Shown: positions 11,276 through 40,000 of the stretch, piece by piece
How positions within the stretch are numbered: position 1 is the first letter of the stretch
How the letters are laid out: every line of letters starts with the position of its first letter
From: Halopenitus persicus
GTDB lineage: Archaea; Halobacteriota; Halobacteria; Halobacteriales; Haloferacaceae
Direction of reading: 5' to 3'
Assembly (NCBI RefSeq): GCF_900107205.1
Contig: NZ_FNPC01000014.1
Location: forward strand, 1 to 40,000
DNA: 40,000 nucleotides
Notes under the pieces: model-generated
What the model saw: the letters and a program-made list of their open reading frames with translations, nothing else
Database searches by the model: none
Told to the model about the DNA's origin: nothing
Program-made: the position numbers and the translations under genes

Positions 11276-11296
11276 ACTCGAAGAATACCCAGGGAA

Positions 11297-11304
11297 TATA
11301 TAAA
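11297..11304 (-). promoter_or_regulatory. putative archaeal TATA box of the queD-queE operon
   Basis: TTTATATA on the minus strand ends 21 nt before the ATG at 11275. This is the typical spacing for haloarchaeal leaderless mRNAs. Confidence 0.4.
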
Positions 11305-11455
11305 TATTGAGTTTCGATACTCCATCGATGGAACAGCAGCACCACTCACGATCGTCTCTCCGCCGACTCTCTCGTTGGCCATCGGTATCCACCACGGCCG
11401 GGCCGCAAGATAGCACCGCACGCAGCTGTATGGTCATAGCCGGTGGTGACCGCTA

Positions 11456-23105: not shown

Positions 23106-25207
23106 GTGGGGACGAGAAAAAACGGCATCAGCGGAAACTGGGTGACAGAATCAAATCCATCGTTCGGTTCTACGACGATCTCGCAGAGCGAACCAGATAC
23201 GGGCCTGTTCAGCCCTACTGCCACGTTCCAGACCTGTTCGAGGTGGACCCCGAAGCGGAACGCCCCCTCACAGTTCCTGGGACGTTCATCTCCGAGCAGG
23301 TCGGCGGCAACATCCCCGTCACAGCAGACGAGGGGGGGCTGCTCGACTCGGAGCCCCTCGACCTGATGCTCTCGTACTACCTCCCTGGTGGTTACAAACG
23401 GCGATGGGACTTCGAGATGTGGACCGGAGACTTCGCTGCCTCGCAACGCGACGGCTACGTGGACGTCACGTCTGGCTTCGAGTTCCGCCAGGACTACCCT
23501 CTCGAAGAGGTGCTCTCTTTGACGGACTCGGAGGAGTACACACCGTTCGGGTACGAAACGGACGAGGTCGGTCTCTATGTACCCGAGGAGATCTACGTAA
23601 AGCAGCCAGCGTCCCCGCGTTACTTCTTCGACACCGTTCACAAGCACGTACTGAACTACAATCCCGACACCGTTCCAGACGAAGACGTTATCGACCTCGG
23701 AATGAGCGACCCGAGCTCGAACTTTCTCTGGTTCAAACACCTTCACCGACTCGGTGGAGACATCGAAAGATTCGACATCGAGGAGGAGGGCGAACTGTTC
23801 AGTCGGATCGTCTTCTCCGACGAGTCCGTCTTCCTGAAGTGTTACTACGCGACGGTCCTCACTTTGTATCGGCAGGACCAGCGGACATTCTCCGATGTCG
23901 TCCGGTACTTCAATGACCGTAGCGGTCGGGTCGCCTTCGTGACGAGTGAGGAGAAGAGCCAGGTGCTCCTCTTCGACATTCCTCGTGAATGGGTCGAAAA
24001 ATCGGTCAGTAGGCAACTGGACTCGAACGAGTCACTGCGGCGTGACCTCGGGTTCGCACAACTGTATCGGGAGCTCTGGGACGACCTCTTCTTCACCGAC
24101 CGGACGATACAGAACGTCTACGGCGTCGATCCAGTCTTCCGATCCCTTCAGGCTGCGGACTACTGGATTCGGACCTCAGACGAGAGTCCCAATTCTGTGT
24201 TCGAGGCATCGGTCAACGAGATTTGCGGAGTTCTCGACAAGGTAATTCCGGAATCAGGTCCGAGCAGACTTCGGCTGATGGGATACGACAGCGACCAGCG
24301 CGAGGATCTGAAGGATCTTTTCCGGGACAACTCGGAAGAACTACGCGAGGTTCTGGAGAACTGTGCGTCGATAGAAAACCAGCGGACGTTCACCGAGCAG
24401 GTCCTCGTTCACTCCCTGCAGAACGCCGTCGCAGGATGGGCCGTGGCGGCGGGACTTGGCGGAAGCGACTTCGAAACCTGGTACGACGCGAACTACCAGA
24501 GCAAGGACATCGACGTCGTACAGTTAGCGCTCTACGACACGATTCAGGGCGGCGCCGGGACGAGCAAAGAGGTCTTCAAACGGCTCAAGGATGGATCACT
24601 CGACATCTCCGGCCCGCTCTCTAACCAGTGTTCCTGCCACATCTCGCTCGCGGAGGACCTCGTGCTCTCGCTGCTCGCCGAGCGCGACGCGTCCGTTCTC
24701 TACGACATCTACACGCAGGGCGACGGCGAAGACGACGAGATTCAGCGGGATCTCTTCGACCTCGCAGTCGCTACCGCGTCAGATATCGACAGAGCCAAGC
24801 TCGTTGACGAGGAGGAGGTCATCACCGTATTCAATCGTCGGATTGCCTCGCTGTACGAGACGAAAGAACTTGCACGCTTCTACGGCGCGGTCGCCCGGGC
24901 GTACCACCGCATAGCGTCCGAACTGAATCGGACACCGACTGCGATGGACGTTGTCCTCGGTCTCGAAGAAGAGACGTTTATCGATTCCCGGGTGAGAAAC
25001 ACCTACGAACGGTTCGCCAACCGTGGCTCCCAGCGTAGGGACCTGAGCGAACTTGCCGACCGCGTCGAGGAGATCACAAAGCAGTGCATCAGAGCCTGTC
25101 CGGACTGTCTCGAACGACAGGACTCTATGTACGCGTATCGCTACCAGAACCAGATGCTCGACAAACGCCTCTTGCAGGCGTCGCTTTCCGAGGTGATTGA
25201 AGTATGA
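23102..25207 (+). CDS. DUF1998 (MrfA Zn-binding, DrmB-like) domain protein
   Basis: The C-terminal third contains HSLQNAV...LALYDTIQGGAGTS (24530-24559) and Cys pairs C510-x-C512 and CIRACPDCL (25085-25108), followed by NQMLDKRLL. This matches the DUF1998 pattern. The N-terminal ~470 aa are unassigned. Confidence 0.7.
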   Translation: MSGDEKKRHQRKLGDRIKSIVRFYDDLAERTRYGPVQPYCHVPDLFEVDPEAERPLTVPGTFISEQVGGNIPVTADEGGLLDSEPLDLMLSYYLPGGYKRRWDFEMWTGDFAASQRDGYVDVTSGFEFRQDYPLEEVLSLTDSEEYTPFGYETDEVGLYVPEEIYVKQPASPRYFFDTVHKHVLNYNPDTVPDEDVIDLGMSDPSSNFLWFKHLHRLGGDIERFDIEEEGELFSRIVFSDESVFLKCYYATVLTLYRQDQRTFSDVVRYFNDRSGRVAFVTSEEKSQVLLFDIPREWVEKSVSRQLDSNESLRRDLGFAQLYRELWDDLFFTDRTIQNVYGVDPVFRSLQAADYWIRTSDESPNSVFEASVNEICGVLDKVIPESGPSRLRLMGYDSDQREDLKDLFRDNSEELREVLENCASIENQRTFTEQVLVHSLQNAVAGWAVAAGLGGSDFETWYDANYQSKDIDVVQLALYDTIQGGAGTSKEVFKRLKDGSLDISGPLSNQCSCHISLAEDLVLSLLAERDASVLYDIYTQGDGEDDEIQRDLFDLAVATASDIDRAKLVDEEEVITVFNRRIASLYETKELARFYGAVARAYHRIASELNRTPTAMDVVLGLEEETFIDSRVRNTYERFANRGSQRRDLSELADRVEEITKQCIRACPDCLERQDSMYAYRYQNQMLDKRLLQASLSEVIEV

Positions 25208-28200
25208 TTGTCTCGCTGTACGACGTCGTCCACAACGCCGAGAAGTACGCAATAACAGACCTTTCCAAGGAAGAGCAAGCGTTCAAGGATAAGGAACTCA
25301 CCGTCCGATGTGAAGTCACCGGGATTCCATCGACCGGAACTGCAGGGGGTGAGAAGACTCTCTACCCGGTCGACGACCCGACGACTCAGCTCCAAGACGA
25401 AGTACTGCTATCATTCTGGCACGAGGACTCCAACTGGGGCCGGCTTGAGGAGACCGACAACGCGGTTCAGACCTTCGTCGACACGTCGCCGCTCCAGCGT
25501 GGGGAGGAGTTGCTCGTGCGGGCGATTCCTGTCCATCGAGAGGGCAAGTGGTACCTCAACGTGACGTCGCTGTTCGTCCGCAACCCTGACATAACCATTG
25601 GGAAGAGCGAGATGCGGTCGGCCAACGAATGTCCCCGAATCTACGACCTACGATACCGGAAGAACGTTTTCAACCCGAACCGGTACGACATCTCGAAGGG
25701 CGCCGTCAAGGGCAGCATCGCTCACCGGGCACTGGAACGCGCGATAGACGACTCCGAGTTCGCCGCGAACTTCGAGTCGGGATGGACGGACGACGATGTC
25801 GAGGAACTCATGGACGCCGTCGTGGATGAGAGCTTCTCGATGGAGATGACGCTGTGCCGCCTCGCCTGGGTGAGCCCCAACGACATCAAGGAGTTTGCCG
25901 AAAACTCGGTTCTCAACCTTCTCCAGGACGCTGGGTTCACGAAACTCGTTCGGGGAACCGAAACCCTGGAAACTGAACGAACGATCGCCGACTCGTACGG
26001 CTTGAACGGCCGCGTCGACCTGATGATCGACGGTAGTCCGCTCGACCTCAAGACGAACTTCTTCCTCGAAGACGGGATGAAACAGCGGCACAGGTTCCAA
26101 CTTCGCCTGTACTTATTCGGGGTCCTGCTGGAGAACCTGGACCAGGGAATGAATCTCGGCAAGGTGTTGGACGAACTCCCGCCGGGCGTGATTATCTACC
26201 CCAATCTGCAAGATGAGTCGGAACCGGTGTACGAACGGGTAGAACTAGAGCACCACCACATCGAGGAGATCATGCAACTCCGGAACCAGGCGGCGACGCT
26301 CCGGGATTCCTTCGCCGTGCCGACGACGTATGACAGGGACTGTTCTGGCTGCTACTTTAAGGACGAAGACACGATCGGTAGCGGTGCAGGCGCAGGCCAG
26401 AGGCTGCCGTCCGCCTGCAAGTTCCACTGCCAGTCGGAACGCCGGTGGGCCTGCCACGAAACGAACGACGAGGGCGAGGTGAAGACCGAGTGTCCCTTGT
26501 ATCACGAGTGCGACCAGCGCCTGGAGTACCGCAATCCGAGCGTCACGGACCACTATAACCAGCTTAGGTCGGCTCTCCAGGATGAGAAGCGAGCCAGGAA
26601 GGATGCCGGCAAGACGATGGCCCGGATGACTGACGAGGTCCTAGAGAACGCAGGGATGCAGCTTTCCGGGCTTTCCTTCGAGGAGGAACTCTCAACCCGG
26701 CGGATGCTCTATTCCGGCGAGTCGGTTCGCCTGTTCGAACCCGGGACCCCAGTACGAATCGTCCCAGAAGACGAAGATACACACATCGTGGCGACCTACT
26801 GTGGTACCCAGGAAGGGGGTTATGTCTTCGAGTTCGACGGGTCGCCCCCGACTGACTTCAAACGGTTCAATGTCACGTACCGAGCCACGAGAGCGGTCGA
26901 ATCGACGTCGCTCCCTCGCCGATTGCTCTCGGAGCTCGATTACGCACAACGGATCGGAATCGACCCCCGTCTCCGAGAGTCAGGAGAGATCTCCCCAAGT
27001 CCGGAGCGAATTGCTCCTGACGCAGTCGAAAAGATTGCGGACTACCTAGACAACCGGCAGGTATTCGTTAACCTCCCGGCGCGAGTCAGTCGCTCCGAGA
27101 AACTCACCCAACTCGTTCGTGAGGTCACGCAGTCCCCTCTCCAGTCGCTTGACGGAGACTGGGTGCCTGACGACGACCGCCGGGTGCTCGTGCTCGGGGC
27201 TCGGCTCCCCGAGCTAGACTCCGTGGCCGACCATCTTGTCGACGGAGATGATATCATCCGTGTCGACGGATTCGGTGACGCGAAGAACGCATACGGCCCG
27301 ACCAGCAACTCGCACAGGCTCTACGAAGCAATTCGGGACTCCAACGTCATCGTCTCCTCGGCCCAGTACGCGCTGCAGGAAGGTGTCTTCCATTCGATGA
27401 CATCGGGTGATGAATCGGCTCGGCCTCATTCGAGCCGCTTCTTCGATGCAATCGTGATACTTGGTGCTGAGACCCTGACGGAACCCGAGTACGTCTTCCT
27501 CCGTGACCTCGCCGACCGAACTGTCGCCGTCGGAGAAGTCAACCGGGAGAGTCCCGAGATGGTCAGCGAAGAGGCTCGGGAGAAGGGACTCGCTGAGTCC
27601 TACTACGTTAACGCGTACAAGCGCTTCAGCACGATTTCGAGTGAATCTGCCGAGTCGATTTTCATCGAGGGGGAGGCCTCGACGCCAGTCGCCGAGTTCT
27701 TCAAACCGCTGGACATCGAGCTTGATGGGATCGGCGGCTCCGCGTCGTTCCACCACGTCTCGGGAGAGGAGCAACGAGCAGAGGAATATATGACTATTGA
27801 GCGGCGAATTCATACGGTAGGCGAGACCGACGAGCCACGGGATATCCTCCTCAAAGCGCTCGATCGAGGTGACGCTCTTTACGTCGCGTCCCAACTCGAC
27901 GATCTGAACGCACTCGATGCAACCGACCTCAGAGTGGGACAGACCTACACGTTCGGCGAGGCCCGGTTCCGAGTCGAAAACAATGACGTCGCCCCCGACC
28001 GCGATATGGGCCACGTGGTCACCGTCGACATCAACCTCTCCCAGACGCCATACTTCACCCGGCGACTCATCTTGAACCCGCTGGAAGCGCAGGAAGTCGC
28101 TAATCTCACAGCCGAACAGGAGCCTTCGCTCGTCGTCACTCCCTTCGAAGCGCAAGCCGTATCCATCAGCACGGAACTGGAGGACCGAGGGATTGACGTG

Positions 28201-28413
28201 CCGGTGGTCACTCCCGACGCCCTCGAAGGAGACATCGTAGAAGATGTAATCGTGAGCCTCACAGTGGCCAACGACGAAGAAATCGTCCGGCCACCGGTGA
28301 ATAACATCGAGACACTGTACACCTTGCTAACGGCTGGTGAGTCCGTCACTGTCGTTGGGGACGAAGCGACGCTCAAGCGAAATACACTAACCGAACGCCT
28401 CACCGACTTGTAA
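25204..28413 (+). CDS. multidomain protein: N-terminal OB-like region, Cas4/RecB-type PD-(D/E)XK Fe-S nuclease, and a degenerate Upf1/Dna2-like SF1 helicase core
   Basis: Nuclease motifs: ECPRIY, GSIAHRALE, GRVDLMIDGSPLDLKT, QLRLYLFGV, and C380-x2-C383...C405 (about 25606-26433). The helicase C-terminal signature is VVTPFEAQAVSI...VVTPDALEGDIVEDVIVSL...VTVVGDEATL (28120-28410). The Walker A slot reads VLVLGARLPEL (27184-27216) and the Walker B slot FDAIVILGAE (27442-27471). Confidence 0.8.
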   Translation: MIVSLYDVVHNAEKYAITDLSKEEQAFKDKELTVRCEVTGIPSTGTAGGEKTLYPVDDPTTQLQDEVLLSFWHEDSNWGRLEETDNAVQTFVDTSPLQRGEELLVRAIPVHREGKWYLNVTSLFVRNPDITIGKSEMRSANECPRIYDLRYRKNVFNPNRYDISKGAVKGSIAHRALERAIDDSEFAANFESGWTDDDVEELMDAVVDESFSMEMTLCRLAWVSPNDIKEFAENSVLNLLQDAGFTKLVRGTETLETERTIADSYGLNGRVDLMIDGSPLDLKTNFFLEDGMKQRHRFQLRLYLFGVLLENLDQGMNLGKVLDELPPGVIIYPNLQDESEPVYERVELEHHHIEEIMQLRNQAATLRDSFAVPTTYDRDCSGCYFKDEDTIGSGAGAGQRLPSACKFHCQSERRWACHETNDEGEVKTECPLYHECDQRLEYRNPSVTDHYNQLRSALQDEKRARKDAGKTMARMTDEVLENAGMQLSGLSFEEELSTRRMLYSGESVRLFEPGTPVRIVPEDEDTHIVATYCGTQEGGYVFEFDGSPPTDFKRFNVTYRATRAVESTSLPRRLLSELDYAQRIGIDPRLRESGEISPSPERIAPDAVEKIADYLDNRQVFVNLPARVSRSEKLTQLVREVTQSPLQSLDGDWVPDDDRRVLVLGARLPELDSVADHLVDGDDIIRVDGFGDAKNAYGPTSNSHRLYEAIRDSNVIVSSAQYALQEGVFHSMTSGDESARPHSSRFFDAIVILGAETLTEPEYVFLRDLADRTVAVGEVNRESPEMVSEEAREKGLAESYYVNAYKRFSTISSESAESIFIEGEASTPVAEFFKPLDIELDGIGGSASFHHVSGEEQRAEEYMTIERRIHTVGETDEPRDILLKALDRGDALYVASQLDDLNALDATDLRVGQTYTFGEARFRVENNDVAPDRDMGHVVTVDINLSQTPYFTRRLILNPLEAQEVANLTAEQEPSLVVTPFEAQAVSISTELEDRGIDVPVVTPDALEGDIVEDVIVSLTVANDEEIVRPPVNNIETLYTLLTAGESVTVVGDEATLKRNTLTERLTDL

Positions 28414-28807
28414 CCGGACCGCATCCCCGGGGACTCGCTATTAGACGAGAAAGTCGATGATACCAATAGAGAGGCGTGTCAACTTCTTTTCTTCCTCGAT
28501 CGCGCTTGAGGTTCCAACATCGTGTATTCAATTCACTCAAGAACATCCCCTAAACGAGCGAGTTCTTTGAAATTGTCCACATCGATTTCATTCTTCCCTA
28601 TTTAGCCGCGACTACTGTAGCAGCGACTACCTATTGGCCAGCATCCCTCCTTCACCGAAAGTATTACTACTGGTATCAGATGCGATCTGGGAGTACTCTA
28701 CAACAATTTCTTTGGTTCGAAAAGAAAGATCGAGAATTTCGGCTGCAGTTTCGATCTGGTTCTTTGCCGCCTTCGAAACGCCGCTCTCAGGGAGTTCTGG
28801 GTTGCTC

Positions 28808-29974
28808 TCAGTTATTGGATGCGTCTTCAGTAAGAATTCCTGCACTCCGAAATGCGGCCATCAACGAGCCGAATTTCTTCACATAGGCTCTGTGGGAGAA
28901 CCGTGTTCTGTCGTTGATTTCGGTCTCATTAGGGAGTCTACCCAACTCCTGAGTCAGCGCGACTAACTCGATGATAAGTTCTCGTTTGTCCCAGTCGAAT
29001 TCCTCCTCATAGGTATTGGAAGTCGGTCGTAATTCGGAGGACTCCAGCGAGTCTTGGGATACTGATTCGGCGTCCGTCTGAGTTGAGGCTTCGTTTTGAT
29101 TACTGGGTTTGGGTTCCACCCACTCCAGGACCACGTCGAGCTGGTCCTCAATCACATCCTGAATAGAGGGATCTTCGTAACGAGCGTATTCCAAGAGGTC
29201 GAAAAGGATCAGCGAGAGGCTCTGGTAGAAACCCATCCCTCCAACTTCTTTGGTATGCTCGCCCGCAAATGCATCCACTTTCTCACGAGGCGTGGTATCA
29301 TCGATACCTTTCCGTCGCGCATAGGCGTTTTCTGCTTCAGCGAGACGGCGCCGGACGCTCTCGTACTTCTCAGTGTCTGAAACAAGAGGGAGAGGTCCGA
29401 GGGCTGTCTCTACGTACCGGCGCTCGAATTCGGTGATGAAGTCGAAGGTGTCGTCCGGGTCGAGATCCCAGTAGTTCGCAATGACCCACGCGTAGTCTTC
29501 ATCAATCTCTGTGACTTTATTGGCAGGAATCCACTCGGTGACGTCAAGTCGATCGACGAGTAGATCGTTCCAGCGCAAAAGCGAGCAACTCAGCGTCGGA
29601 TCCATCACCCGAGCAAAGTACGGAATCGATTCGAGAGAGTAGACAAGAGCGGGTCCGTCGATGTCTTTGGCTCGCAGGACCGCGCTGTACTCGTCAAGCA
29701 GTTTCTCGAACCGTCGGTGTCGGTGTTTGTTGATGGCGTTCCGAACGTACTTTTCACGTACACCGATTTCGCCGGCGAGTTCGGAGACCGTATATCGACT
29801 GTTTTGGAGTCGGTCGAAGATGGCGGTAGTGAACGGTTTATCGAGAACCCTAATCGGCGCTCCGTACTCAGGGATTTCACGCACAGGATTCTGGTCGAGG
29901 ATCACCCTCCGCTCATCGACCAGTTTCCGTTGTTCTTCCTGAGAGAGTGCGTAGAATTCCTCGCTCGATACCAT
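28808..29974 (-). CDS. HTH protein with a C-terminal homing-endonuclease-associated repeat
   Basis: HTH: YTVSELAGEIGVREKYVRNAINK. The C-terminal ELIIELVALTQELGRLPNETEINDRTRFSHRAYVKKFGSLMAAFRSAGI matches the repeat commonly found with haloarchaeal HNH proteins. Confidence 0.7.
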   Translation of the reverse strand: MVSSEEFYALSQEEQRKLVDERRVILDQNPVREIPEYGAPIRVLDKPFTTAIFDRLQNSRYTVSELAGEIGVREKYVRNAINKHRHRRFEKLLDEYSAVLRAKDIDGPALVYSLESIPYFARVMDPTLSCSLLRWNDLLVDRLDVTEWIPANKVTEIDEDYAWVIANYWDLDPDDTFDFITEFERRYVETALGPLPLVSDTEKYESVRRRLAEAENAYARRKGIDDTTPREKVDAFAGEHTKEVGGMGFYQSLSLILFDLLEYARYEDPSIQDVIEDQLDVVLEWVEPKPSNQNEASTQTDAESVSQDSLESSELRPTSNTYEEEFDWDKRELIIELVALTQELGRLPNETEINDRTRFSHRAYVKKFGSLMAAFRSAGILTEDASNN

Positions 29975-30036
29975 CTATTCGGTATCTAATGGTAGAGCGT
30001 CTTTTCAGTTTGGGTAGTACTCCCCGATGACCGGTG

Positions 30037-30631
30037 TCATTCCAGAACCTGATTGACGAAGTCGGGGGGATATCGTTCTCACAGTTGTCTACTGCTTGGT
30101 CTAGAACTCGAATACACACGGACAGTATCTGTCGGATATTCCCTTGCGAACGTTGTAGAATAAGTTCTACAACCTCTTCTGAGAATAGCTTCCTCCCTGT
30201 CGTTGACCCGGTACGTTGTTTGCCTAGGTACGCTTCAATAAGTTGGTTGACATCGTCAACTGTCAGAGGGCTGAGTACAATTTCTTGACCTATTCTCTCA
30301 GAGGAGGCGTGGTATTTACTCATCACGTCCTGCCAGACCTCGGGAGCACACCCAAAGAGTATGTAAAGCCCCGATAGTTCTGATCCATTAGGTGCCGGAT
30401 GGTGTTCAACGTAGACAGATCGTCTTTCGGAGAATCTTGTAGTCACTCCCACTGGGATTCACGCTGTCTGATGGCACGGGCGTTGACCATCGCGGTCTGC
30501 AAATCATAGATGCTGTCCACATATTCTGGGGTATTGTCGCTCGACCGCTTCCCGATGTTCCGGACCGAGAGTAGGATAAGGATGTTGAGTGCTCCGTGGG
30601 GTGTCTAGAGCGTCCGTTGTCGGTACAGCAT
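30037..30631 (-). pseudogene. decayed second copy of the TGT-like/ATPase module (deletion fusion)
   Basis: The minus-strand reading MLYRQRTL*TPHGALNILILLSVRNIGKRSSDNTPEYVDSIYDLQTAMVNARAIRQRESQW parallels residues 1-61 of the 12358 gene, with an in-frame TAG at 30605-30607. It then joins directly to ...SPKDDLSTLNTIRHLMDQN / GLYILFGCAPEVWQDVMSKYHASSERIG..., which parallels the C-terminal third of the 14272 ATPase. A 1-nt deletion lies between about 30355 and 30385. A second frame change sits at the G6 run at 30064-30069. Confidence 0.8.
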
Positions 30632-30702: not shown

Positions 30703-31416
30703 TCACGAGTCTTCGAACTGCTTGAAGTCGAGTTGGGCCGTGGGTTCCGAAGTGCAGAACTCCTCAATATCAGAGATAGTCTCGATTGTATTCCCGGCAG
30801 ACAGGTTGCTGGCGAAGTTCTTCAGATACGTTCCTTTAAGCGCGACGACAATCGATCCGTTCTCCTTCGCCTCGTCAGTTCTTGCCGGAATCGAGATGAG
30901 ATTCTTCCGCCCGTTGGCCACCTCTGCCTGGTTGAAAAGCACACCCCAGGTGCCGGATGGGATTTCAGACATTATCCCCTGGACGTCTATGCTGAGATAG
31001 TACTTGCTCCCCAGTGCGAAGAACACGATGTCGTACGGCTTCTCCACGGCAAAGAGTTCCCGAACCGACTGCGGAATCCCGAGTTTCGTCCTCCGATTTA
31101 GAAGCTCTTCCTTCAACATCTCGTTGAAGGTGACTTCGTACGGGGGAAGTTCCTCGGTCTCTTCGACGAGACCGAACCCTGCGCTGATGAAGTAGCGGTC
31201 CACCTCATACCCCGTTTCCCGAAGAGCGTCGACGGCTTCGGAGATATATTGCTGCTGTCGGCCCTTGTAGAGATCACGTGCCCGCAATCTTGCCACACCC
31301 TCTTGTTCAAACAACTCCTCTCTCGGCTGCGCATCGATCTCGTCGGCATCGAACACCGGACTCTCATCGGGGTACTCCTTCGCTCCCGAGCACTGGTCGA
31401 TGATGAGTATCTTCAT
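30703..31416 (-). CDS. hypothetical protein with a DUF6884-like / YaaA(DUF328)-like motif pattern
   Basis: MKILIIDQCSGAKE...ARDLYKGRQQQYI...DRYFISAGFGLVEETEELPPYEVTF. This gives an N-terminal beta-strand plus CSxxK, LYxG, and SAxxGL...PYxxT. Its start overlaps the stop of the 734-aa TGT-like gene (forward TCAT at 31413-31416). Confidence 0.65.
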   Translation of the reverse strand: MKILIIDQCSGAKEYPDESPVFDADEIDAQPREELFEQEGVARLRARDLYKGRQQQYISEAVDALRETGYEVDRYFISAGFGLVEETEELPPYEVTFNEMLKEELLNRRTKLGIPQSVRELFAVEKPYDIVFFALGSKYYLSIDVQGIMSEIPSGTWGVLFNQAEVANGRKNLISIPARTDEAKENGSIVVALKGTYLKNFASNLSAGNTIETISDIEEFCTSEPTAQLDFKQFEDS

Positions 31417-33617
31417 TGGCTGAACTCCGCGAGCCCGGATTGGACGAGCCGTGACGGCAGATATTCAGCCTCGTACCCCAGGCGGTCGAGAACCGCCGTT
31501 CGTAGCTCATTCGCGTCGGAATACTCGTGAACCGTACAATCTTGGGTCTCGACCGCGTGTCGAACTTCCTCGAACAGAGGGCGATCCGTCGAATATATGA
31601 AGAGGTCTTGATAGCGGACGCAATGGGCTCCGATTTGTTGACCGAGTTTGGACGGGGCGAGTGAAACCGTCGACGGCGGTTGCTCCCACCATTCGTGAAC
31701 GCCGTTTGCGGTTACGACCCCGATCTCCGCGACCGGCAGGTCATGAACCGCCTTCCAGAGTTCGGGTTCACTGTTCCGAAGATACGACTCGATCGTTTCA
31801 ACACCCGATAAACTGGCTGAGGCCTCGGTGGCAACGAGGATCTTCGGCAGTTCCTCCTCAAACTCGTCGTAGAACTTCCGGGTGTTGTGGAATCCGCGGC
31901 GACGGTTCCGGTTGTTTCCCCGGAAGATGGCGACTTCGATACCGAGTTCGGAGCAGATTGGACAGCCACACTCCCGCCACGGTTCGTTGCGGAGGGTCTT
32001 CTCGTAGGCTTGGAGGTGGTCCTCGTCACCCATCCACTCCGCATACGATTTGACGAGCGCCCAGACCTGTTTGAACGTCCCGACATCGGCGGTCGTCCGT
32101 TCGCGCCGTGCAATCTCCGCTTGCATCGACTCGAACTCTTCGAATACGCCGCTCGCTGTCTTCAACAATCTCGCGTACTCTTCGAAAAGGAGTGGCTCCT
32201 CCGGGTCGTCTTCGCGGAGGAGTTTGTGGACGCGACTCCGGAGCATATCGCTGAAACTCGCCTTCAACTCCCCTGCCAGATCGAAGTCCTCTCGGAGTGA
32301 CTGCTCAATGTCACGGAGCCGAGAAGCATCGAACCGGTCGTCGAACCGGTTGTCATAGAGGTAGCTCTCGAAGCTATCGAGGGCAATCTCGGCCGACGAG
32401 AGCCACTCGTCGAGCGCATCTGCGATCGACCGATTCTCGTCGAACGCCCGGAGGCCGTGAAGCACCTCCTGTCCGCGGAGGGCCTTCTCGACAGCGTCTT
32501 CGAGGTCATCACCGTTCGACGGGTACCGGACGCGGATGGCGTCATAGCGGCGTTCACTATCGAGGTGGTAGTTCTCGCCGCCCGTCCAGGCAGCCCGCAG
32601 CATACTCGCGCTGTCAAAACTCGTCATCCCGGTCCGACCGATCGTCTCGAAGGCGTCCGTCTTTGCGAACCCGAAGACGTGCGTGTCGACTCGGGTGTCG
32701 AACCCGCGTTCGTAGTCCTTGATAACAGTCCCGAGCTCGGTGGTGGTCTTTCGGACGTCCTCGACGTTGCTGCCCGCAACCCCACCGATACCGAGGTAGT
32801 CGTAGCCCATCCCGAGGACCTTCCGTGCCGCATTGGCGTACGATCCGGGATCCCACCCCTGGATTGCGACCATAAGACGAAATGAGTAGCCGTTTTCTTC
32901 GTAGAGGTCGCGCATCTCGCGGGCGTTCTTCAGCGTCAACTGGTAGCGAAAGTCGGTGTCGTCTTCCCGATAGACCGCCCGTGGGTCGTCCCGGAGGTCG
33001 GCGAGGACACGATCGGCCGATCCCTCGAAAATCGATAAGTCGAACGGGTCCGGATCGCCCGCCTCGTAGATCGACGGTTCGGATTCGGCCACATAGTCGG
33101 GCCAGGTGTCAGGCCACTCGTCGATCATAAGGTCGAGGTCCTCCGTTAGGTCCTCGGGTAGATCGTCCGTGGAGAATCCCTCGGGCATCGCACGCTTGTC
33201 GAGGTAGAGTCGCTCCTGATGACCAGTGCCTAGCACAAGGTGGTCGATAGTCACGCCGACCGTGACGCCAAGTTGCTCGTAGAATTCCAACATCCCGTCG
33301 TTGTCGTAGGGCGGAAACGGGAGTTGTTTGTAGCCCCAAGCCCCGCAGTCGCTGATCGTAGGCAGCCAGTCGGGGATGTTCAGACCGGACGCTTCGTGGT
33401 GGACTCCGTGGTCGATGAGACGCTCGAACTTCGTGCGGCTGTCCTCAACCTGCTCGCGGGAGATGAGGACGCCGTCGATGGGTGTGCTCTCGTAATCGAA
33501 GATATCCCAGATGTACTGCTGGACGCGTTCGCTGGTATGCGGCGAAGAGTGCTCGTCGTGCTCAAAGTCATAGTGAGCGTCGACGCGGTCTTCCCATTCC
33601 GGTACGTAGAACCTCAC
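31413..33617 (-). CDS. large divergent TGT-superfamily protein (734 aa) with long insertions and a C-terminal extension
   Basis: FYVPEW; SDCGAWGY (33330-33353, the DSGGFQ position); YLGIGGVAG; HVFGFAKT; MTSFDSASMLR (around 32610-32618). The zinc site is CGCPIC-x21-H (31887-31970, ...NRRRGFHN). About 210 aa of helical insert separate FDS from the zinc site, and residues 590-734 are unassigned. Confidence 0.8.
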   Translation of the reverse strand: MRFYVPEWEDRVDAHYDFEHDEHSSPHTSERVQQYIWDIFDYESTPIDGVLISREQVEDSRTKFERLIDHGVHHEASGLNIPDWLPTISDCGAWGYKQLPFPPYDNDGMLEFYEQLGVTVGVTIDHLVLGTGHQERLYLDKRAMPEGFSTDDLPEDLTEDLDLMIDEWPDTWPDYVAESEPSIYEAGDPDPFDLSIFEGSADRVLADLRDDPRAVYREDDTDFRYQLTLKNAREMRDLYEENGYSFRLMVAIQGWDPGSYANAARKVLGMGYDYLGIGGVAGSNVEDVRKTTTELGTVIKDYERGFDTRVDTHVFGFAKTDAFETIGRTGMTSFDSASMLRAAWTGGENYHLDSERRYDAIRVRYPSNGDDLEDAVEKALRGQEVLHGLRAFDENRSIADALDEWLSSAEIALDSFESYLYDNRFDDRFDASRLRDIEQSLREDFDLAGELKASFSDMLRSRVHKLLREDDPEEPLLFEEYARLLKTASGVFEEFESMQAEIARRERTTADVGTFKQVWALVKSYAEWMGDEDHLQAYEKTLRNEPWRECGCPICSELGIEVAIFRGNNRNRRRGFHNTRKFYDEFEEELPKILVATEASASLSGVETIESYLRNSEPELWKAVHDLPVAEIGVVTANGVHEWWEQPPSTVSLAPSKLGQQIGAHCVRYQDLFIYSTDRPLFEEVRHAVETQDCTVHEYSDANELRTAVLDRLGYEAEYLPSRLVQSGLAEFSQ

Positions 33618-34889: not shown

Positions 34890-35390
34890 ATGGAAAACTC
34901 AAATCCCCCGAATCAAGAGGTTGTCGGTGACCAGTTAATTGAAGATATATCAAAAATAAAATATATTGCGCTCGGGGAAGGGCCGGCGGCGTGTCAGGTC
35001 TGCGACCGCGAGCTCCGGGAAGGCGACGAGCTGACCGCGTATGCCTTCCGGGCGGCTGGCAACCCCATTTTTGAGATCGGATACGTGATGTGCGGGGCGG
35101 ACGAGCACGCACACCCGACGGAGTTTATGCGCGGCGTCCACGAGCTCGTGGTGACTGGTCGGGTTGGGCTGTGTTCTGATGTGGCGGTGCAGTCGTCGTG
35201 GTTGGTTCTGCTTGCGCCGTCGGTGGTGGTGGTGAGTGTGGCGTCGTCGGACTCGGCTTGCGTGGTGGGTGATGACACGACGCGCGATGCTGAGGCCCGG
35301 AGCACTACCGTCACTGAGCATCGGGGTGGTCCGAGGTCGTTGCTGTCGGTTGTCTGTGAGGATACTCGGGCTGATGGGGGTGGTTGGTGA
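34890..35390 (+). CDS. hypothetical protein, first ORF of the RAMP operon
   Basis: The only in-frame start is the ATG at 34890. Its stop overlaps the next ATG (TGATG at 35388-35392). It contains CQVCD...MCGADEH. The first ~28 codons are AT-rich and the rest is GC-rich. Confidence 0.5.
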   Translation: MENSNPPNQEVVGDQLIEDISKIKYIALGEGPAACQVCDRELREGDELTAYAFRAAGNPIFEIGYVMCGADEHAHPTEFMRGVHELVVTGRVGLCSDVAVQSSWLVLLAPSVVVVSVASSDSACVVGDDTTRDAEARSTTVTEHRGGPRSLLSVVCEDTRADGGGW

Positions 35391-36307
35391 TGGTGTTGGA
35401 GTTTGAGACGTCGCATTTGGATCGTGAGGTGTCGCTCCCGGACGATGTCGAGGAGCTCACGCTTCCGGATCTGTACGTGGGACTCGAGATTCCGCTGCTC
35501 GCACCGGGCGATGGGATCGTGACGGATCGCCATCACGCCTCGGCGGATCGGTATGAGGCGGATGATCCGCAGAATTTGATTGGTGGGATGGTGTCGCCGT
35601 TCCCATTGTCGGGGTGGTTGCGGCACGGTTGTGAGCGTGTGGTGCAGGTGGCGGGCGGGTCGGCGTGTCATCCGGGTGAGGCGAATGCGGACTATATGCT
35701 TGAGGATGTGTATGAGCGTGACCTCGACGCCGGGTACCACGAGAAAGGGTCGTGCGTCGACGACGATGCGGGCTGTGTCGTCTATGACTTGTTCGGCGGG
35801 TTTAATGATCGGGCGGGGCGGTTGGTGCGTCGGCCGATCCGGTTTTCTCCGATTCGCCGGCAAGTCGACGTCCTGCAGGGCGAAGCGGAAGCGCATTACC
35901 GCCAACTGAATACGCAGGTGCGTTCGCGGAACAGTGAGGATGACGGGCAGCCGTTGCGGATGGCGTCCCGAGACGTTGTCGGGAACCTGGTGGGGACGTG
36001 GAAGTTGTCGCTGCGGGAGTTGAAACCGGAGTACGTCGGGCTGCTGGTTGAGGCGGTTGATTATTTGGATGCGCATAGTGATGAGTTTGAGCTTCAGCTT
36101 GGTGGGGCGCGGAATTTCGGGGCGGGGATGGTGGATGCGCGCGTCATCAACCCGTTGTACACGGACGCTGAGATCAAGCGGGTGTATAATCGCGCGCAGG
36201 ACGCCACGTCGGGGATGGCGTGGAAGGATGACCTGTGGCGGGAGTCGGTGCGCCAGGAGTTCGTGACGCCGCTGCAAGAGCGTGTGAACAGTATGGGGGA
36301 GCTGTGA
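35390..36307 (+). CDS. RAMP-superfamily (Cas7-like) protein, not linked to a CRISPR array
   Basis: LEIPLLAPGDG (beta1 plus glycine), PFPLSGWLRHGCERVV (the S-x-x-G-x-x-R position), GCVVYDLFGG (the C..c.lFG motif), and LQLGGARNFGAGMVD (the C-terminal G-rich loop). Confidence 0.7.
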   Translation: MVLEFETSHLDREVSLPDDVEELTLPDLYVGLEIPLLAPGDGIVTDRHHASADRYEADDPQNLIGGMVSPFPLSGWLRHGCERVVQVAGGSACHPGEANADYMLEDVYERDLDAGYHEKGSCVDDDAGCVVYDLFGGFNDRAGRLVRRPIRFSPIRRQVDVLQGEAEAHYRQLNTQVRSRNSEDDGQPLRMASRDVVGNLVGTWKLSLRELKPEYVGLLVEAVDYLDAHSDEFELQLGGARNFGAGMVDARVINPLYTDAEIKRVYNRAQDATSGMAWKDDLWRESVRQEFVTPLQERVNSMGEL

Positions 36308-37128
36308 TGGCGCAAGCGAGTGATACGGTTAGCGTGGATCTGCGGGTGGCGTATCGGCACGATGTTCACAAACTGCGTGGTCGTCAGCACGGGTCGGGGT
36401 GTGACGAGCTGTTCGATGTGCCGGTTAATGAATCAGTCCCGATGCAGGCGGATCGGGATGCGGCGTTGTTGAGCCGGCCGGACGGCGAACCCGAGCAGAC
36501 GGTGGCGAATCATGCGTCGCCGGCGCGGCTGTCGCTGCTCACGGGCTCGGTACTCGAAACGGGGGCGGTCCCCGTACAGGATACTTCGATCACGCCGCTG
36601 GTTGATGGGTCGCCGGAAGAGTTGCACGCGGCGTGGTTGACGAGTGAGACTGCGTCGCTGGTGAATGAGTCGGTGTTTCTGCCGTATTCGTCGTTGAAGT
36701 ATCACGTGTTGCTGGTGGCGGGACTGCTTGATGCGTACCGGGCGGGCCACGTGTTTGATGACCTGTTCCTGGTTGTAGAACCGACTACAGATGTACCGCC
36801 ACGAGATGCGGATCGAGTAGTGAGACAGCAGGCGGCACTTGACGCAGATACGGTGATTCCACACCGAACCATCCTGTGGACGGAGGCGATGACGATGCGG
36901 TTGACGGCGTCACCGGACGGGTCGGCGGCGTGGCTTGGTCCGGCGCCGGCTGAGTCGTTTGCGGATGTGTGGAGTCGCGTGTCTGGGTCGCCGGTGGATC
37001 GTGACACGGTATGGTGGCGACACGTCGACGCACAGCTCCGTCGCATCCGGTCGTGGTCGACGGCGCTACAGTACATTGAGGATGCTGTCGCGGGTGAGAC
37101 GCGCGGCACGGTGGGGGTGGATGCGTGA
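36307..37128 (+). CDS. hypothetical protein of the RAMP operon
   Basis: The ATG at 36307 overlaps the upstream TGA by 1 nt. 273 aa, acidic, no recognisable motif. LPYSSLKYHVLLVAGLLDAY is only faintly HD-like. Confidence 0.6.
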   Translation: MAQASDTVSVDLRVAYRHDVHKLRGRQHGSGCDELFDVPVNESVPMQADRDAALLSRPDGEPEQTVANHASPARLSLLTGSVLETGAVPVQDTSITPLVDGSPEELHAAWLTSETASLVNESVFLPYSSLKYHVLLVAGLLDAYRAGHVFDDLFLVVEPTTDVPPRDADRVVRQQAALDADTVIPHRTILWTEAMTMRLTASPDGSAAWLGPAPAESFADVWSRVSGSPVDRDTVWWRHVDAQLRRIRSWSTALQYIEDAVAGETRGTVGVDA

Positions 37129-37438
37129 CCCGTCGTCACGGTCGTGACGGCTGGGCTGCTGACTCCGGTCATGCGATATGGTCGTACGGTGAGTCGGCGG
37201 GTCGGACTGCGTGTCCGGTCGCGTTCCCGGCTCTCCAGGGTCGAGGGTCGTTGGACCGCCCGGCAGTACACGCCTCACCAGCGGTTCGCCGTGCGTTGCG
37301 GGTGCTTGGTGGGGCTGTGTCTCCTGCTGGTGGTGAGTGGGGGTTGAGTCGAGTGGGGGCTCGCTGTGGTGATGCAGTTACCCGGGATGGGTCGGTGTGT
37401 TATGATCTCGATGTGAACCGAAGGGGGTGTGGTGTGGT

Positions 37439-38383
37439 ATGACGCGGATCCAGCAGGTCGTGTTCGAGTTGACAGCGCCGTACGCGGGGCGGCCGTATCA
37501 CGTGTCGGGTCACGCGTTGTTTCAAGCGATCGCGGCGGACGTCGACGACCGGGCGCGACGCGAGTTACAGGTGAGTCACGGGGTGTTCACGCCGTCTGAG
37601 TACGGGTCGTACCCGGATGAGCATTCACAGGATGGGTATGCGGGGAAGCTCGGCGGGTCGCTCCCGCCGGTCGAGTCGTACGAGGATCTGTTCCTGTTTC
37701 GGGACGCAGCCCAGCGATGGTTGCAGGCGTCCCGGCCGCGTGAGGCGCAGAATACGATGGATGTCCAGTCGCACGGCGGGCGGCTCGCGGTCGCGCCGGA
37801 GTCGTTCTTCGGGGTGCCGGCACACCAGCGGAATTCGAAGCGCCGCGTGACATGGTACATCCACGCGTATCTTCACAGTGAGCGCGAGGGCGTGCTCCCG
37901 CTTGATGAGAGCGTGCTTGATGGGATCCGGGTGGGCGGCGCGCGGAACTACGGGTTTGGGGAGGTATCGCTTGTCGACTCACAGGTCGTCGATCTCGACG
38001 CGGTGTCGTTCGATGGGCTGCGGGGGCACGACCAGTACTCCATCGAGCTGGTGACGCCGTACGTCTTGCAGAGTGAGGCCCCGGACGCGGACACCCAGTC
38101 GGTGCCGTGGTGGTGGGATACGTCGGTTACGGGCATGGGAAGTGATGCGCCGACGCGAGACCGGCGGTTGCGTCGCCGCGAGGAGCGACTCGCTGGGGAG
38201 TCGGTGTACGACTTGGCGACGATCGATCACGGGCAACTTGTCGGCTACGCCGGAAACGACCCGATACAGACGGCGAAAAACGGCGTGTTGCGAATCGGAA
38301 CACACGCACGATTCGGGTTCGGTGAGCTGCGGGTGCGGCCGGCGGGTCGTGATCGCGTGCCGGAGCGTGAGGGGGTGGTGTGA
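37439..38383 (+). CDS. RAMP-superfamily protein with two G-rich loops (Cas5/Cas6-like two-RRM architecture)
   Basis: YHVSGHALFQAI near the N-terminus. The two glycine-rich loops are IRVGGARNYGFGEVSL and LRIGTHARFGFGELRV. Confidence 0.7.
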   Translation: MTRIQQVVFELTAPYAGRPYHVSGHALFQAIAADVDDRARRELQVSHGVFTPSEYGSYPDEHSQDGYAGKLGGSLPPVESYEDLFLFRDAAQRWLQASRPREAQNTMDVQSHGGRLAVAPESFFGVPAHQRNSKRRVTWYIHAYLHSEREGVLPLDESVLDGIRVGGARNYGFGEVSLVDSQVVDLDAVSFDGLRGHDQYSIELVTPYVLQSEAPDADTQSVPWWWDTSVTGMGSDAPTRDRRLRRREERLAGESVYDLATIDHGQLVGYAGNDPIQTAKNGVLRIGTHARFGFGELRVRPAGRDRVPEREGVV

Positions 38384-39042
38384 TGCTTGAGCAGGTGGCG
38401 TTCGATATTGAGACGACTGGATTTGACATCAATGATGAGGTGACGGTCGTCGGGTTTGCGATGCCGATGGGTGTCCGGGTGTTCGTTCAGACCGCTGGGC
38501 GGGCCGCCGGCGATGTCGAGGCCAGCGTGTCGGCGCGGCTGTCGGACACACTTGTGAATGTGTCGACACACCCTGATGAGTCCGCGCTGTTGGCGGCTGT
38601 CGCGGCGTTCATCGGTGACCGGATACAGGACGCGGAGTCGCTGCTCGTTGCGTTTAACGGCGAGGTGTGGAGTGGCGGGTTCGATCTGCCGTTCCTGCGG
38701 AGTCGGTACGCGGCGCATGGGATGGCGTGGCCGTTCGATGTGGCGTATGCGGACGTGTTGCCGGTGATTTCGGATCGGTTCAACACGACGGTTGACGGTG
38801 AGGAACAGCGCGGGTTGGCGGCTGTGTACAGGCTGCTCGGCGACGGGTCGCATAGTGACCTTGATCCGTTTGAGGACAGTGCCGCGGCGGTGACCGCTTT
38901 CGAAGACGGGCGGTTCGTGGAGCTCGTGTTGCATAACGTGGCGGATGTGTTGCGGACGCGGGCGCTCGGCCGGGTTGCTGAGCGGTACTGTAGCAAGGCA
39001 GAGTTCAACGTGAAATCGTTGACGCCGACGAGGTCGAGTTGA
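38383..39042 (+). CDS. DEDDh 3'-5' exonuclease (DnaQ/RNase T-like)
   Basis: Exo I AFDIETTG; Exo II LVAFNGEVWSGGFDLPFL; Exo III LHNVADVLRT (H-x4-D). The ATG overlaps the upstream TGA (38381-38385). Confidence 0.8.
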   Translation: MLEQVAFDIETTGFDINDEVTVVGFAMPMGVRVFVQTAGRAAGDVEASVSARLSDTLVNVSTHPDESALLAAVAAFIGDRIQDAESLLVAFNGEVWSGGFDLPFLRSRYAAHGMAWPFDVAYADVLPVISDRFNTTVDGEEQRGLAAVYRLLGDGSHSDLDPFEDSAAAVTAFEDGRFVELVLHNVADVLRTRALGRVAERYCSKAEFNVKSLTPTRSS

Positions 39043-39238
39043 GATGCGGGTGCCGGGAGTCGTAGCCGCGTGGCGGGCTGGGCAAGTGCGTGACTGGGTG
39101 GTGCCGCCGGATTGACGCGCGGTGTCGACAGGCGGCTCCGTTGGTGCTGTCGGTGCGGAGTGAAGCGATACACCAAGACTCACGGCAGCGCAGTGCAGTA
39201 TCGGTCGCAACTGAACACGACGTACACTGAGAGACAAT

Positions 39239-40000
39239 ATGGCAGAAGCTGATACACGACCCCGAGCGGATGAATCAGGCAGTCCAACTACAGACGGCAA
39301 GGACGCCGGGACGACGAGCCCTCGTGAGTGTCACGAGACGGTTGACCCGGCGACGCGTGACGAGGTCCTGACGGAGTACCAGCATCGGTGCCAGGCGTGC
39401 GGGCGACGCGGGCCTGCACAAGGTGGGCTGGCGACGCTGCACGTCCATCACATCGAGCGGGACCCCGACGGGATAAACGAGCACGACCTGGAGAATTTAA
39501 CGTTGCTGTGCCGGTCGTGCCATAGTTGGTTCCACCAGCAGAGCACCCCGGATGAGTTGCCAGTGGATATCACTGAGGAAGATGAGAGTGTGCTGCTCCC
39601 GCAGGACATCGAGATCCTGCGGTACTTGGCTGATGAGGGGCCGGCGCGGACCGGTGAGATTTCGAACGGGTTGACGGCTGAGTTGTCCGTCACCACGGTT
39701 CGGGAGCGGCTGGCGTTGCTGATGGGGCTTGACAATATGGTCGACTCTCGGGACCAGCAGATCGTCGATCAGGACGCTGACACCGGCGAGTGGGGCCTGA
39801 CCGAGCAGATTGAGCATTCAGCGCGTGGGCATATTCCGTCGGATCCGCAAGCGTTGATTCAGCGCGTTGAGGACGAGCAAGTTAGGCAGGCACTGGAGCG
39901 TGGGTGCGACCGGGAGACCGTGATGGCTGTGCTCGATGTCTCCAGAAGGACGACGTTTCACAAGGAAAAACGCGCGATGGCGTACGATTTCCCGTTGAAT
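39239..40000 (+). CDS. HNH endonuclease fused to a winged-helix domain, 3'-partial
   Basis: This ORF is missing from the supplied track because it runs off the window. My translation from the ATG at 39239 gives ...YQHRCQACGRRGP...LHVHHIERDP...NLTLLCRSCHSWFH (an HNH motif). It continues with EILRYLADEGPARTGEISNGL..TTVRERLALL (a wHTH). The frame is open to position 40000. Confidence 0.8.
   Translation, partial: MAEADTRPRADESGSPTTDGKDAGTTSPRECHETVDPATRDEVLTEYQHRCQACGRRGPAQGGLATLHVHHIERDPDGINEHDLENLTLLCRSCHSWFHQQSTPDELPVDITEEDESVLLPQDIEILRYLADEGPARTGEISNGLTAELSVTTVRERLALLMGLDNMVDSRDQQIVDQDADTGEWGLTEQIEHSARGHIPSDPQALIQRVEDEQVRQALERGCDRETVMAVLDVSRRTTFHKEKRAMAYDFPLN

Follow-up and report, generated by a model that had tools for sequence, protein, structure and literature searches.

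Why should one haloarchaeal island encode two proteins of the tRNA-guanine transglycosylase (TGT) fold, one of them followed by a gene of the DUF6884 family? This question is raised by the first 40,000 nucleotides of contig NZ_FNPC01000014.1 of Halopenitus persicus (assembly GCF_900107205.1), the whole stretch of DNA that was analysed, called here the window. Its minus strand carries the gene for a TGT-fold protein of 734 amino acids (aa), named here DpdA-long, directly followed by the gene for a 237-aa protein, and its plus strand carries a second TGT-fold gene, coding for a 344-aa protein (TGT344). A sequence-only reading had taken the 734-aa and 237-aa proteins for a second, independent pair resembling DpdA and DpdC, the bacterial enzymes that act in the insertion of preQ0 (7-cyano-7-deazaguanine) into DNA as dPreQ0, followed by the formation of dADG, which is 2′-deoxy-7-amido-7-deazaguanosine (PMC10164549). 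The pairing and the kinship with DpdA and DpdC are supported by the present results, but the independence is not; with a probability of roughly two in three, the pair represents the modifying core of a system of haloarchaea that is related to Dpd but lacks DpdB; it would insert preQ0 into the DNA of its own cell and then tailor it.

The identity of DpdA-long is established by profile matches, by a structural homolog and by its catalytic residues. The protein exceeds the cut-off of the NCBIfam DpdA equivalog NF041059 (283.9 bits against 200, E 1.8e-84), matches the PADLOC DpdA model (E 1.7e-74) and aligns in three blocks with Salmonella DpdA of PDB entry 7UI4 (E 1.7e-40); the TgtA and Tgt models of NCBIfam gave no match to it, and no PUA, C1 or C2 tRNA-binding domain was detected. 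It had been described as highly divergent, which is true with respect to the Pfam TGT model PF01702, whose bare detection of it (11 bits, under the cut-off of 26.3) accounts for that impression, but not with respect to the DpdA-specific models, by which it is a clear family member. In Salmonella DpdA, D95 is the acid/base, D130 recognizes the base and D256 is the nucleophile, and mutagenesis showed that D95 and D256 are essential (PMC10164549). With the dpdA product of an Enterobacter plasmid, 93% identical to Salmonella DpdA, as reference for the residue map, these three positions correspond to D90, D125 and D335 of DpdA-long, and the zinc site C368/C370/C373/H395 corresponds to C550/C552/C555/H577; all seven residues are invariant in 46 homologs. 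The 734-aa protein is therefore a DpdA-type transglycosylase; of the two TGT-fold proteins it is this one that, judged by its sequence, counts as the bona fide DpdA. All the TGT landmarks that had been listed for it were located in the proposed order (SDCGAWGY at residue 89, LGIGG at 275, HVFGF at 313, FDSAS at 334 and CGCPIC at 550), with His577 exactly 21 residues past Cys555. Two alignments back the GTG start of the reading frame: that of the family, in which hardly any variation is seen from R2 to W8, and that with bacterial DpdA, which begins at bacterial residue 4.

DpdA-long shares with bacterial DpdA (Salmonella Montevideo, 7UI4) a homologous catalytic core, with the same Asp residues and the CxCxxC...H zinc site, and the presence of preQ0 genes and of a DpdJ-like helicase nearby. 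Unlike the bacterial enzyme (416 aa), it has two insertions and a C-terminal alpha/beta domain, it occurs without DpdB and in an archaeal host, and it is usually fused to a DpdC-like domain. The additions to its TIM-barrel core, relative to bacterial DpdA, amount to ~75, ~100 and ~140 aa. The first, at residues ~131-223, was absent from the sequence-only description; the second falls inside the helical region 372-545 (insertion ~390-530), where a helical insertion of ~210 aa had been described; of the 215 residues from the nucleophile Asp to the zinc site, only ~100 exceed the spacing of bacterial DpdA (112). The C-terminal extension was found about as had been stated; its alpha/beta fold is predicted by AlphaFold2 (AF2) with a predicted local distance difference test score (pLDDT) of ~90, and it contains invariant residues of its own (W621, P628, E631, G633, G639, E642, W644, R668 and Y669) with an invariant signature, HDLPVAE-G...G-HEWW...RY. 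A PDB profile search with this domain returned just de novo designed Rossmann-like proteins (E ~0.01), in Pfam there were only weak matches below cut-off (DUF4853, DUF7007), and similarity to DUF6884 or DpdB was not detectable. In the fused proteins described below, the domain is placed between the DpdA core and the DUF6884 domain; it may represent a new family, with a function in catalysis or DNA binding. Searched as a whole against the PDB, the DpdA-long model retrieved generic TIM barrels only, none at E <=1e-3.

The gene of the 237-aa protein overlaps that of DpdA-long, and both reading frames and their overlap were found as claimed: on the minus strand the two meet in the sequence gag ttc agc caATGAag ata ctc, in which four bases (ATGA) belong both to the TGA stop and to the ATG start, the classic layout for translational coupling, here of the DpdA-long and DUF6884 genes. 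The 237-aa protein is 100% identical to an NCBI entry of Halopenitus persicus. Every element of the pattern quoted for the shorter protein (MKILIIDQCSGAK, LYKG, ISAGFGLV and LPPYEVTF) is present and largely invariant across 49 homologs, in which D7, Q8, C9, S10 and K13, S78-A-G-F-G82 and L90-P-x-Y93 do not vary. The defining motifs of DUF6884 are CxxxK and LSAxxG (PMC11701544); the 237-aa protein has both, as C9-x3-K13 and I77-S-A-G-F-G82, with C9, K13, S78, A79, G80 and G82 invariant. The Pfam DUF6884 model (PF21818) scores it at 26.4 bits (E 8e-6; cut-off 30), a precomputed PF21818 match is found on most of its close homologs, and 103 of 105 more distant relatives match DUF6884 at E <=1e-3. 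Its AF2 model (pLDDT 90.6) has a sole significant fold match in the PDB, the Escherichia coli YaaA structure 5CAJ (Foldseek E 2.6e-4, probability 1.0, template modelling score 0.40), and thus has the alpha/beta 'cantaloupe' fold of the YaaA type. The resemblance to DUF6884 and to YaaA/DUF328 that had been proposed is thus borne out by the CxxxK and SAGFG motifs and by the fold, but not by the YaaA/DUF328 model PF03883, which does not match the 237-aa protein at E <=1. Since DUF6884 is the Pfam domain carried by bacterial DpdC (PMC12235509), the DUF328 and DUF6884 labels share one neighbourhood of sequence space; consistent with this, 18 of the 105 distant relatives match PF03883 along with DUF6884. 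The haloarchaeal protein resembles E. coli YaaA and Bacillus subtilis YfjM, which are putative DNA-binding, base-flipping cleft proteins; unlike YaaA, to which it is 10% identical at a template modelling score of ~0.4, its family has an invariant Cys where YaaA has a Ser, and neither YaaA nor YfjM is linked to TGT genes.

The kinship of the partner with DpdC is also supported. The PADLOC DpdC model PDLC02815 matches residues 2-113 (profile positions 6-116 of 312, E 7e-10), so that the protein is covered over its N-terminal half alone. As reference for authentic DpdC served the protein encoded upstream of dpdA on that Enterobacter plasmid, which PADLOC recognizes as DpdC with E 6e-142; hhalign of the 237-aa family against it gave a probability of 78%, E 2e-5 and 29% identity over 100 columns. 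Like bacterial DpdC, the 237-aa protein adjoins DpdA and has an N-terminal strand with CxxxK followed by A-x-LY-G, SAGxGL and PYxxTF blocks, so that C9SGAK13, LYKG, ISAGFGL and PPYEVTF of Halopenitus stand against CTNGK, LYKG, LSAGLGL and PYKATF of Enterobacter; unlike bacterial DpdC (~320 aa), it has 237 aa, and the C-terminal halves are unrelated at the profile level. A shared core with a C-terminal half that does not align means that the protein is not a full-length DpdC ortholog, and it is best regarded, from its sequence similarity, which is significant but modest, as a DUF6884/YaaA-fold relative of DpdC. An NCBIfam scan of the 105 distant relatives gave no DpdC-named match, from which no conclusion is drawn, as the existence of such a model is unconfirmed. 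The dpdC gene of the Enterobacter cloacae plasmid pPOL9A (L037, 7449-8408) is annotated as 'hypothetical protein', and its start has apparently been called ~36 codons too far downstream, which removes the CxxxK motif; LITTCTNGK, containing this motif, comes into view when the frame is read 36 codons further upstream than the annotated start.

The pair is coupled in evolution as well. One pattern-limited scan of species-level genomes yielded 36 haloarchaeal loci, several of them on plasmids, spread over more than 20 genera. The DUF6884 gene comes after the DpdA gene in all 36: in 25 the two are one polypeptide (~965 aa), in nine they are separate genes as in Halopenitus, and in two a gene is disrupted. 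A profile search over 1.84 billion representatives retrieved 877 relatives, and hundreds of metagenomic proteins belong to the DpdA-long/DUF6884 family, whose present annotation is that of a tRNA enzyme or of a DUF. Among the 105 non-core relatives, 12 contain a DpdA domain, mostly in the reversed order DUF6884 to DpdA; one of these proteins comes from a planctomycete, Ca. Uabimicrobium amorphum. That the two have been fused independently, in either order and in archaea as well as bacteria, speaks strongly for a joint action of the two activities, and the functional coupling proposed for the pair is supported by this co-occurrence. In many proteins from outside the haloarchaea, DUF6884 is fused to a domain of ~350-380 aa that is seen by neither the DpdA-long nor the TGT344 profile, a further recurrent architecture found in proteins of 520-565 aa (P0269, P0277, P0278, P0297, P0298, P0300, P0333, P0335, P0340, P0343) and of 590-645 aa (P0285, P0322, P0341, P0344, P0368).

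Sufficient 3′ flank is available for 30 of the 36 loci, and in every one of these 30 the pair is part of a larger operon, with DpdA-long, DUF6884, a TGT, a 297-aa protein and a BrxD-like ATPase following one another on one strand; the operon TGT is 70-76% identical to TGT344 of the window. The reverse test started from 51 metagenomic loci found via TGT344. An upstream flank of 1.5 kb or more was available for 29 of them; in 24 of these, DpdA-long and DUF6884 lie upstream of TGT344 on the same strand, and the remaining five are window-like, with the transporter upstream of TGT344 instead; in window-like loci with adequate 3′ flank (L039, L040, L043, L049, L053, L079) the pair lies convergent downstream of the ATPase. 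In no informative locus does either TGT-fold gene occur without its counterpart, and Halorubrum sp. SP9 shows the same layout as the Halopenitus window, with the helicase/nuclease cassette in between.

TGT344 is matched by the Pfam TGT model with 103.7 bits, by tgt_general with 74.5 bits, over the cut-off of 47.6, and by TgtA with 147 bits, under 350. Its DSGGF, VDVPL, VHGY, FDSSA and CACPVC...H motifs are present, and the catalytic and zinc sites appear intact; PUA or tRNA-binding domains are lacking, and similarity to DpdA4 was not detectable at the sensitivity used. Its best matches of the archaeal TGT type, being under their cut-offs, mark it as the atypical member of the two. The 297-aa protein co-occurs in 30 of 36 loci, always after TGT344, and belongs to a family without a name, having no match in Pfam, NCBIfam, PADLOC or PHROG apart from a faint HVO_A0261_N trace (E 0.024). 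The ATPase, present in the same number of loci, matches Pfam BrxC_BrxD with 62.8 bits and PADLOC BrxD with E 7e-12. Its reading frame, as listed in Table 1, probably starts too early: homologs align from residue ~25-28, and a start at Met25 (MTTDKF..., ~14272) would overlap the stop of the 297-aa gene in an operon-like manner.

DpdB has no counterpart among these proteins. Authentic DpdB compared by hhalign with the DpdA-long, TGT344, 297-aa and BrxD-like families, with cluster 10 and with the C-terminal domain of DpdA-long gave a probability of <=1% each, and no DpdB match was obtained among the scanned ORFs (open reading frames) of the window with NCBIfam and PADLOC, nor in the 36 loci. This absence from the whole system leads to an alternative, that the DUF6884 domain is a DNA-binding, base-flipping accessory that directs DpdA-long to DNA in place of DpdB, so that the end product would be dPreQ0 or whatever base is inserted. 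The one relative with a solved structure, YaaA, has been described as DNA-binding, and in a model of a DUF6884/YfjM protein a nucleotide is flipped (PMC11701544); an obligate subunit would be expected to be fused covalently to DpdA, as is seen in both orders, and the likeness to DpdC does not reach beyond the conserved core. However, the invariant Cys-x3-Lys, SAGFG, Y50, Q54/Q55 and R74 resemble an active site, the motifs are common to authentic DpdC, which is catalytic without need of DpdA or DpdB, and the BrxD-like ATPase is available as a substitute for DpdB. An accessory role is thus unlikely, and a tailoring enzyme related to DpdC is the preferred reading of the DUF6884 protein.

The question of independence is answered by the DNA next to the pair. 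Directly after the 237-aa gene lie two joined pseudogene remnants (Table 1). The first, read from 30631 to 30431, was detected by tblastn with 30 TGT344-family proteins (67-70% identity, E down to 2.5e-27) and has its stops at 'TL*TPHG' and 'QWE*LQDS'; the second corresponds to residues ~273-385 of 385 of the BrxD-like family (tblastn 54-65% identity, E 1.6e-38) and is 49% identical to the intact BrxD-like copy of the window. An ORF at 29913..30452 was rejected as a gene, as it contains the BrxD-like remnant. With scars of both a TGT and a BrxD gene directly behind it, the pair must once have led a full five-gene operon at this place, and an internal deletion, estimated from canonical gene lengths at ~2.5 kb, removed the rest. 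Each of the five module genes is retained in the window in exactly one intact copy, as expected if these form a single functional unit. Direct or inverted DNA repeats of at least 40 bp linking the remnants to the intact copies were not found; therefore the two module copies were already divergent, and the pseudogene copies are of old or foreign origin and not the product of a recent duplication.

These results reject the view that the pair is an independent second system, working on another derivative or substrate than a system headed by TGT344. The two TGT genes do lie 17 kb apart on opposite strands of the window, both proteins retain catalytic motifs, the pocket of DpdA-long differs from that of bacterial DpdA at three invariant positions, and the pair is of another sequence lineage than the TGT344/297-aa/BrxD triad: to loci of the Halorubrum type the triad shows 87-96% identity, but DpdA-long shows no more than ~50-57% identity to the DpdA encoded there. 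However, both TGTs belong to one operon in 30/36 genomic and 24/29 metagenomic loci and neither is found alone where the flanks are informative, the scars beside the pair mark the separation as secondary, and the single intact copy per module gene argues for complementation. Independence, in the form in which it had been claimed, is accordingly quite improbable; the two TGTs may, however, divide the work between them inside a single system.

For the single, DpdB-less system that is preferred here, the following scheme can be proposed, in which homology and gene context suggest DNA as the substrate, preQ0 as the base, the nature of the product, the part played by the ATPase and a function in defence. 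DpdA-long, as a zinc-dependent TIM barrel, would exchange guanine for preQ0 in double-stranded DNA, with Asp335 as nucleophile and Asp90 as acid/base; the preQ0 would come from the neighbouring QueC, QueD and QueE enzymes (joined by FolE in other loci) or from import by a YhhQ-type transporter. The DUF6884 protein would bind the modified DNA in its YaaA-like cleft, flip the base and process the 7-cyano group, most likely to the amide dADG, as DpdC makes; the conversion of dPreQ0 to dADG is known for Salmonella DpdC only (PMC10164549). Cys9 and Lys13 of CxxxK, together with SAGFG, would build the active site, where a role of Cys9 as nucleophile in nitrile hydration is chemically plausible as a conjecture. 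The pair would work with TGT344, the 297-aa protein and the BrxD-like ATPase as one operon, and this ATPase would be the best candidate to stand in for bacterial DpdB in the ATP-dependent step; in other TGT-containing defence loci, too, another NTPase has been proposed in the place of DpdB (PMC12839542). Variable helicase/nuclease cassettes would then restrict unmodified DNA.

Several points weigh against this scheme. In the pocket of DpdA-long, F99, H181 and L236 of bacterial DpdA are replaced by W94, Q253 and F315, each invariant in the haloarchaeal family, and on this basis the base may not be preQ0; a Gln is expected at the position equivalent to H181 in tRNA TGTs. The AF2 model of the DpdA-long core is poor, with pLDDT <50 at residues 335-357 and 552-585. 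The 237-aa protein itself falls just below the DUF6884 cut-off, its likeness to DpdC is modest and limited to the N-terminal half, as the C-terminal halves fail to align, and the conjectured role of Cys9 has no anchor in the described catalytic residues of DpdC. DpdB is missing, though the only biochemically characterised cellular DpdA requires it, and with a second, apparently active TGT in the operon either of the two could insert the base. Finally, no publication describing a dpd cluster of cellular archaea came to light, though a passing mention in the dpd papers of 2016 (PNAS) and 2018 (Mol Microbiol) is possible.

The supply of preQ0 bears on two further alternatives. The queD, queE and queC genes adjoin the module, just upstream, in 23, 19 and 17 of the 36 loci, respectively, and in 13 a FolE gene lies between queC and queE. 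One alternative is that the enzymes act on invading viral DNA, exchanging or removing the 7-deazaguanines of modified haloviruses such as HVTV-1 (dPreQ1). Haloviruses do carry such bases (PMC6884629; PMC10516641), glycosylases that target them are a known defence strategy (bioRxiv 10.1101/2025.10.29.685425), and TGT reactions are reversible base exchanges; however, a linked, full set of preQ0 biosynthesis genes with a transporter fits insertion and not removal, the homology is to an enzyme that inserts preQ0 into self DNA, and no close viral relative was found, with no match in PHROG or in the haloviral tblastn search, so that this role is very improbable. A tRNA-modifying system, i.e. a paralog of the archaeosine pathway acting at G15 or another tRNA position, as the NCBI annotation of family members ('queuine tRNA-ribosyltransferase') and the use of preQ0 for archaeosine in haloarchaea (PMC5699537) would suggest, can be practically discarded, given a best model of DpdA and not TgtA or Tgt, a Pfam TGT score of 11 bits, the absence of PUA, C1 and C2 domains, a patchy distribution on islands and plasmids beside helicase/nuclease defence genes, and a partner with the DNA-binding YaaA fold.

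Compared with known systems, the DpdB-less modification module appears clearly as Dpd-like chemistry in a distinct architecture. Two TGT-fold paralogs that always occur together recall, by analogy only, the eukaryotic heterodimer QTRT1/QTRT2; unlike in that pair, where QTRT2 is non-catalytic, both haloarchaeal paralogs keep the catalytic and zinc motifs. In the BREX-related capture (BRC) systems, too, a homolog of TGT is encoded among defence genes, with neither DpdB nor DpdC (PMC12839542), but PglZ, HerA/FtsK, DUF4007 and GNAT, on which these loci are centred, are absent here, and BRC has no DpdC-like partner. The dpd clusters have been described 'around the bacterial tree' (PMC5699537), DpdA4 has been assigned to archaeal viruses (PMC10516641), and neither deazaguanine nor transglycosylases appear in a survey of the defence systems of haloarchaea from 2025. 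The modification of DNA with 7-deazaguanines is thus documented for bacteria and for viruses, including haloviruses, and no report for an archaeal chromosome was found. It is tempting, though still somewhat doubtful, to see in the module the first cellular archaeal 7-deazaguanine modification-restriction core, independent of DpdB, with DpdA/DpdC-like channelling and with an obligatory second active TGT and a BrxD-like ATPase; its base, or the pattern of sequence or strand that it modifies, might be one unseen in bacteria, because of the altered pocket, the two transglycosylases and the conserved C-terminal domain.

From the fusions of DpdA and DUF6884, the DUF6884 family, so far uncharacterised, gains a concrete role that can be tested, and a module without DpdB but with a second TGT and a BrxD-like ATPase is a natural experiment on the need of DpdA for an ATPase and on the choice of target sites. 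Haloferax and Halobacterium genetics make it directly testable; if the proposed function is true, the reading of the arms races between haloarchaea and their viruses would be affected, since haloviruses use 7-deazaguanine chemistry too. In Halobacterium salinarum UC 4243, a food isolate, five copies of GTP cyclohydrolase I and six each of queD, queE and queC have been listed (PMC10058572, Table 2) and were read by the authors as an enrichment of the folate pathway; they may instead reflect multiple Dpd-like modification modules.

Table 1. Positions of the module, its remnants and the neighbouring genes in the window
Feature	Position	Strand	Description
queC	9250-9939	-	Pfam QueC, 245 bits
queE	10038-10814	-	Pfam Radical_SAM/Fer4_12
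queD	10814-11437	-	Pfam PTPS
YhhQ/Vut_1-type transporter	11456-12115	+	Pfam Vut_1, 133 bits
TGT344	12358-13392	+	344 aa, second TGT-fold protein, usual operon partner of the pair
Conserved module protein	13389-14282	+	297 aa, family without name
BrxD-like AAA ATPase	14200-15429	+	last gene of the five-gene module
Candidate restriction/effector cassette	16212-29974	mixed	between the module halves
Cassette proteins		+	265-aa protein without family; 1123-aa SMC/AAA-like ATPase; 911-aa DpdJ-like DEAD helicase
Cassette proteins, continued		+	701-aa MZB-domain protein; 1069-aa PD-(D/E)XK/Dna2-like nuclease-helicase
HNH-repeat protein	28808-29974	-	388 aa, sole match a C-terminal HNH_repeat (homing-endonuclease-associated)
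BrxD-like pseudogene remnant	30042-30433	-	last ~110-130 codons, joined to the TGT remnant
TGT344-family pseudogene remnant	30431-30631	-	first 67 codons, two in-frame stops
DUF6884/DpdC-like protein	30703-31416	-	237 aa, ATG start; ORF confirmed
DpdA-long	31413-33617	-	734 aa, GTG start; ORF confirmed
C-terminal alpha/beta domain of DpdA-long	31413-31840	-	residues ~591-734, ~140 aa, own invariant residues

The DpdJ-like helicase of the candidate cassette matches the PADLOC DpdJ model PDLC02896 with E 7.5e-59. The cassette is found whole in Halorubrum sp. SP9 and in part in six further loci (L010, L014, L019, L028, L035, L041). The HNH-repeat protein travels with the SMC-like/DpdJ-like cassette in L010, L014, L019, L028, L035 and L038. 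Other modules have other cassettes: a DruE/DrmA-like helicase of ~1300 aa with a PLD-domain protein of ~660 aa (DpdK/DrmC-like) lies upstream of the module in ~10 loci (L012, L013, L015, L020, L024, L029, L030, L033, L036), and a DpdH-like protein of ~950 aa with two unknown proteins of ~300 aa is found in five (L006, L008, L017, L022, L027). This suggests that restriction arms are exchanged in modular fashion between the haloarchaeal modules.

The island has a guanine-plus-cytosine (GC) content of ~48-59%, against 61-65% in the flank; neither a tRNA gene at its boundaries nor direct or inverted repeats of at least 40 bp were found. No repeat array was found in the region 28-40 kb, and none of the ORFs at 35-40 kb recurs in the 36 loci. 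Just past the island, positions 35000-40000 have a GC content of 61-65% and a GC skew of +0.17 to +0.26, and contain four plus-strand ORFs (35384-36307, 36235-37128, 37427-38383, 38380-39042). Beyond the island, a 307-aa ORF has a sub-threshold match to the RAMP superfamily (E 0.017) and a 220-aa ORF matches RNase_H_2 (E 5e-5); the 35-40 kb region may be a separate element.

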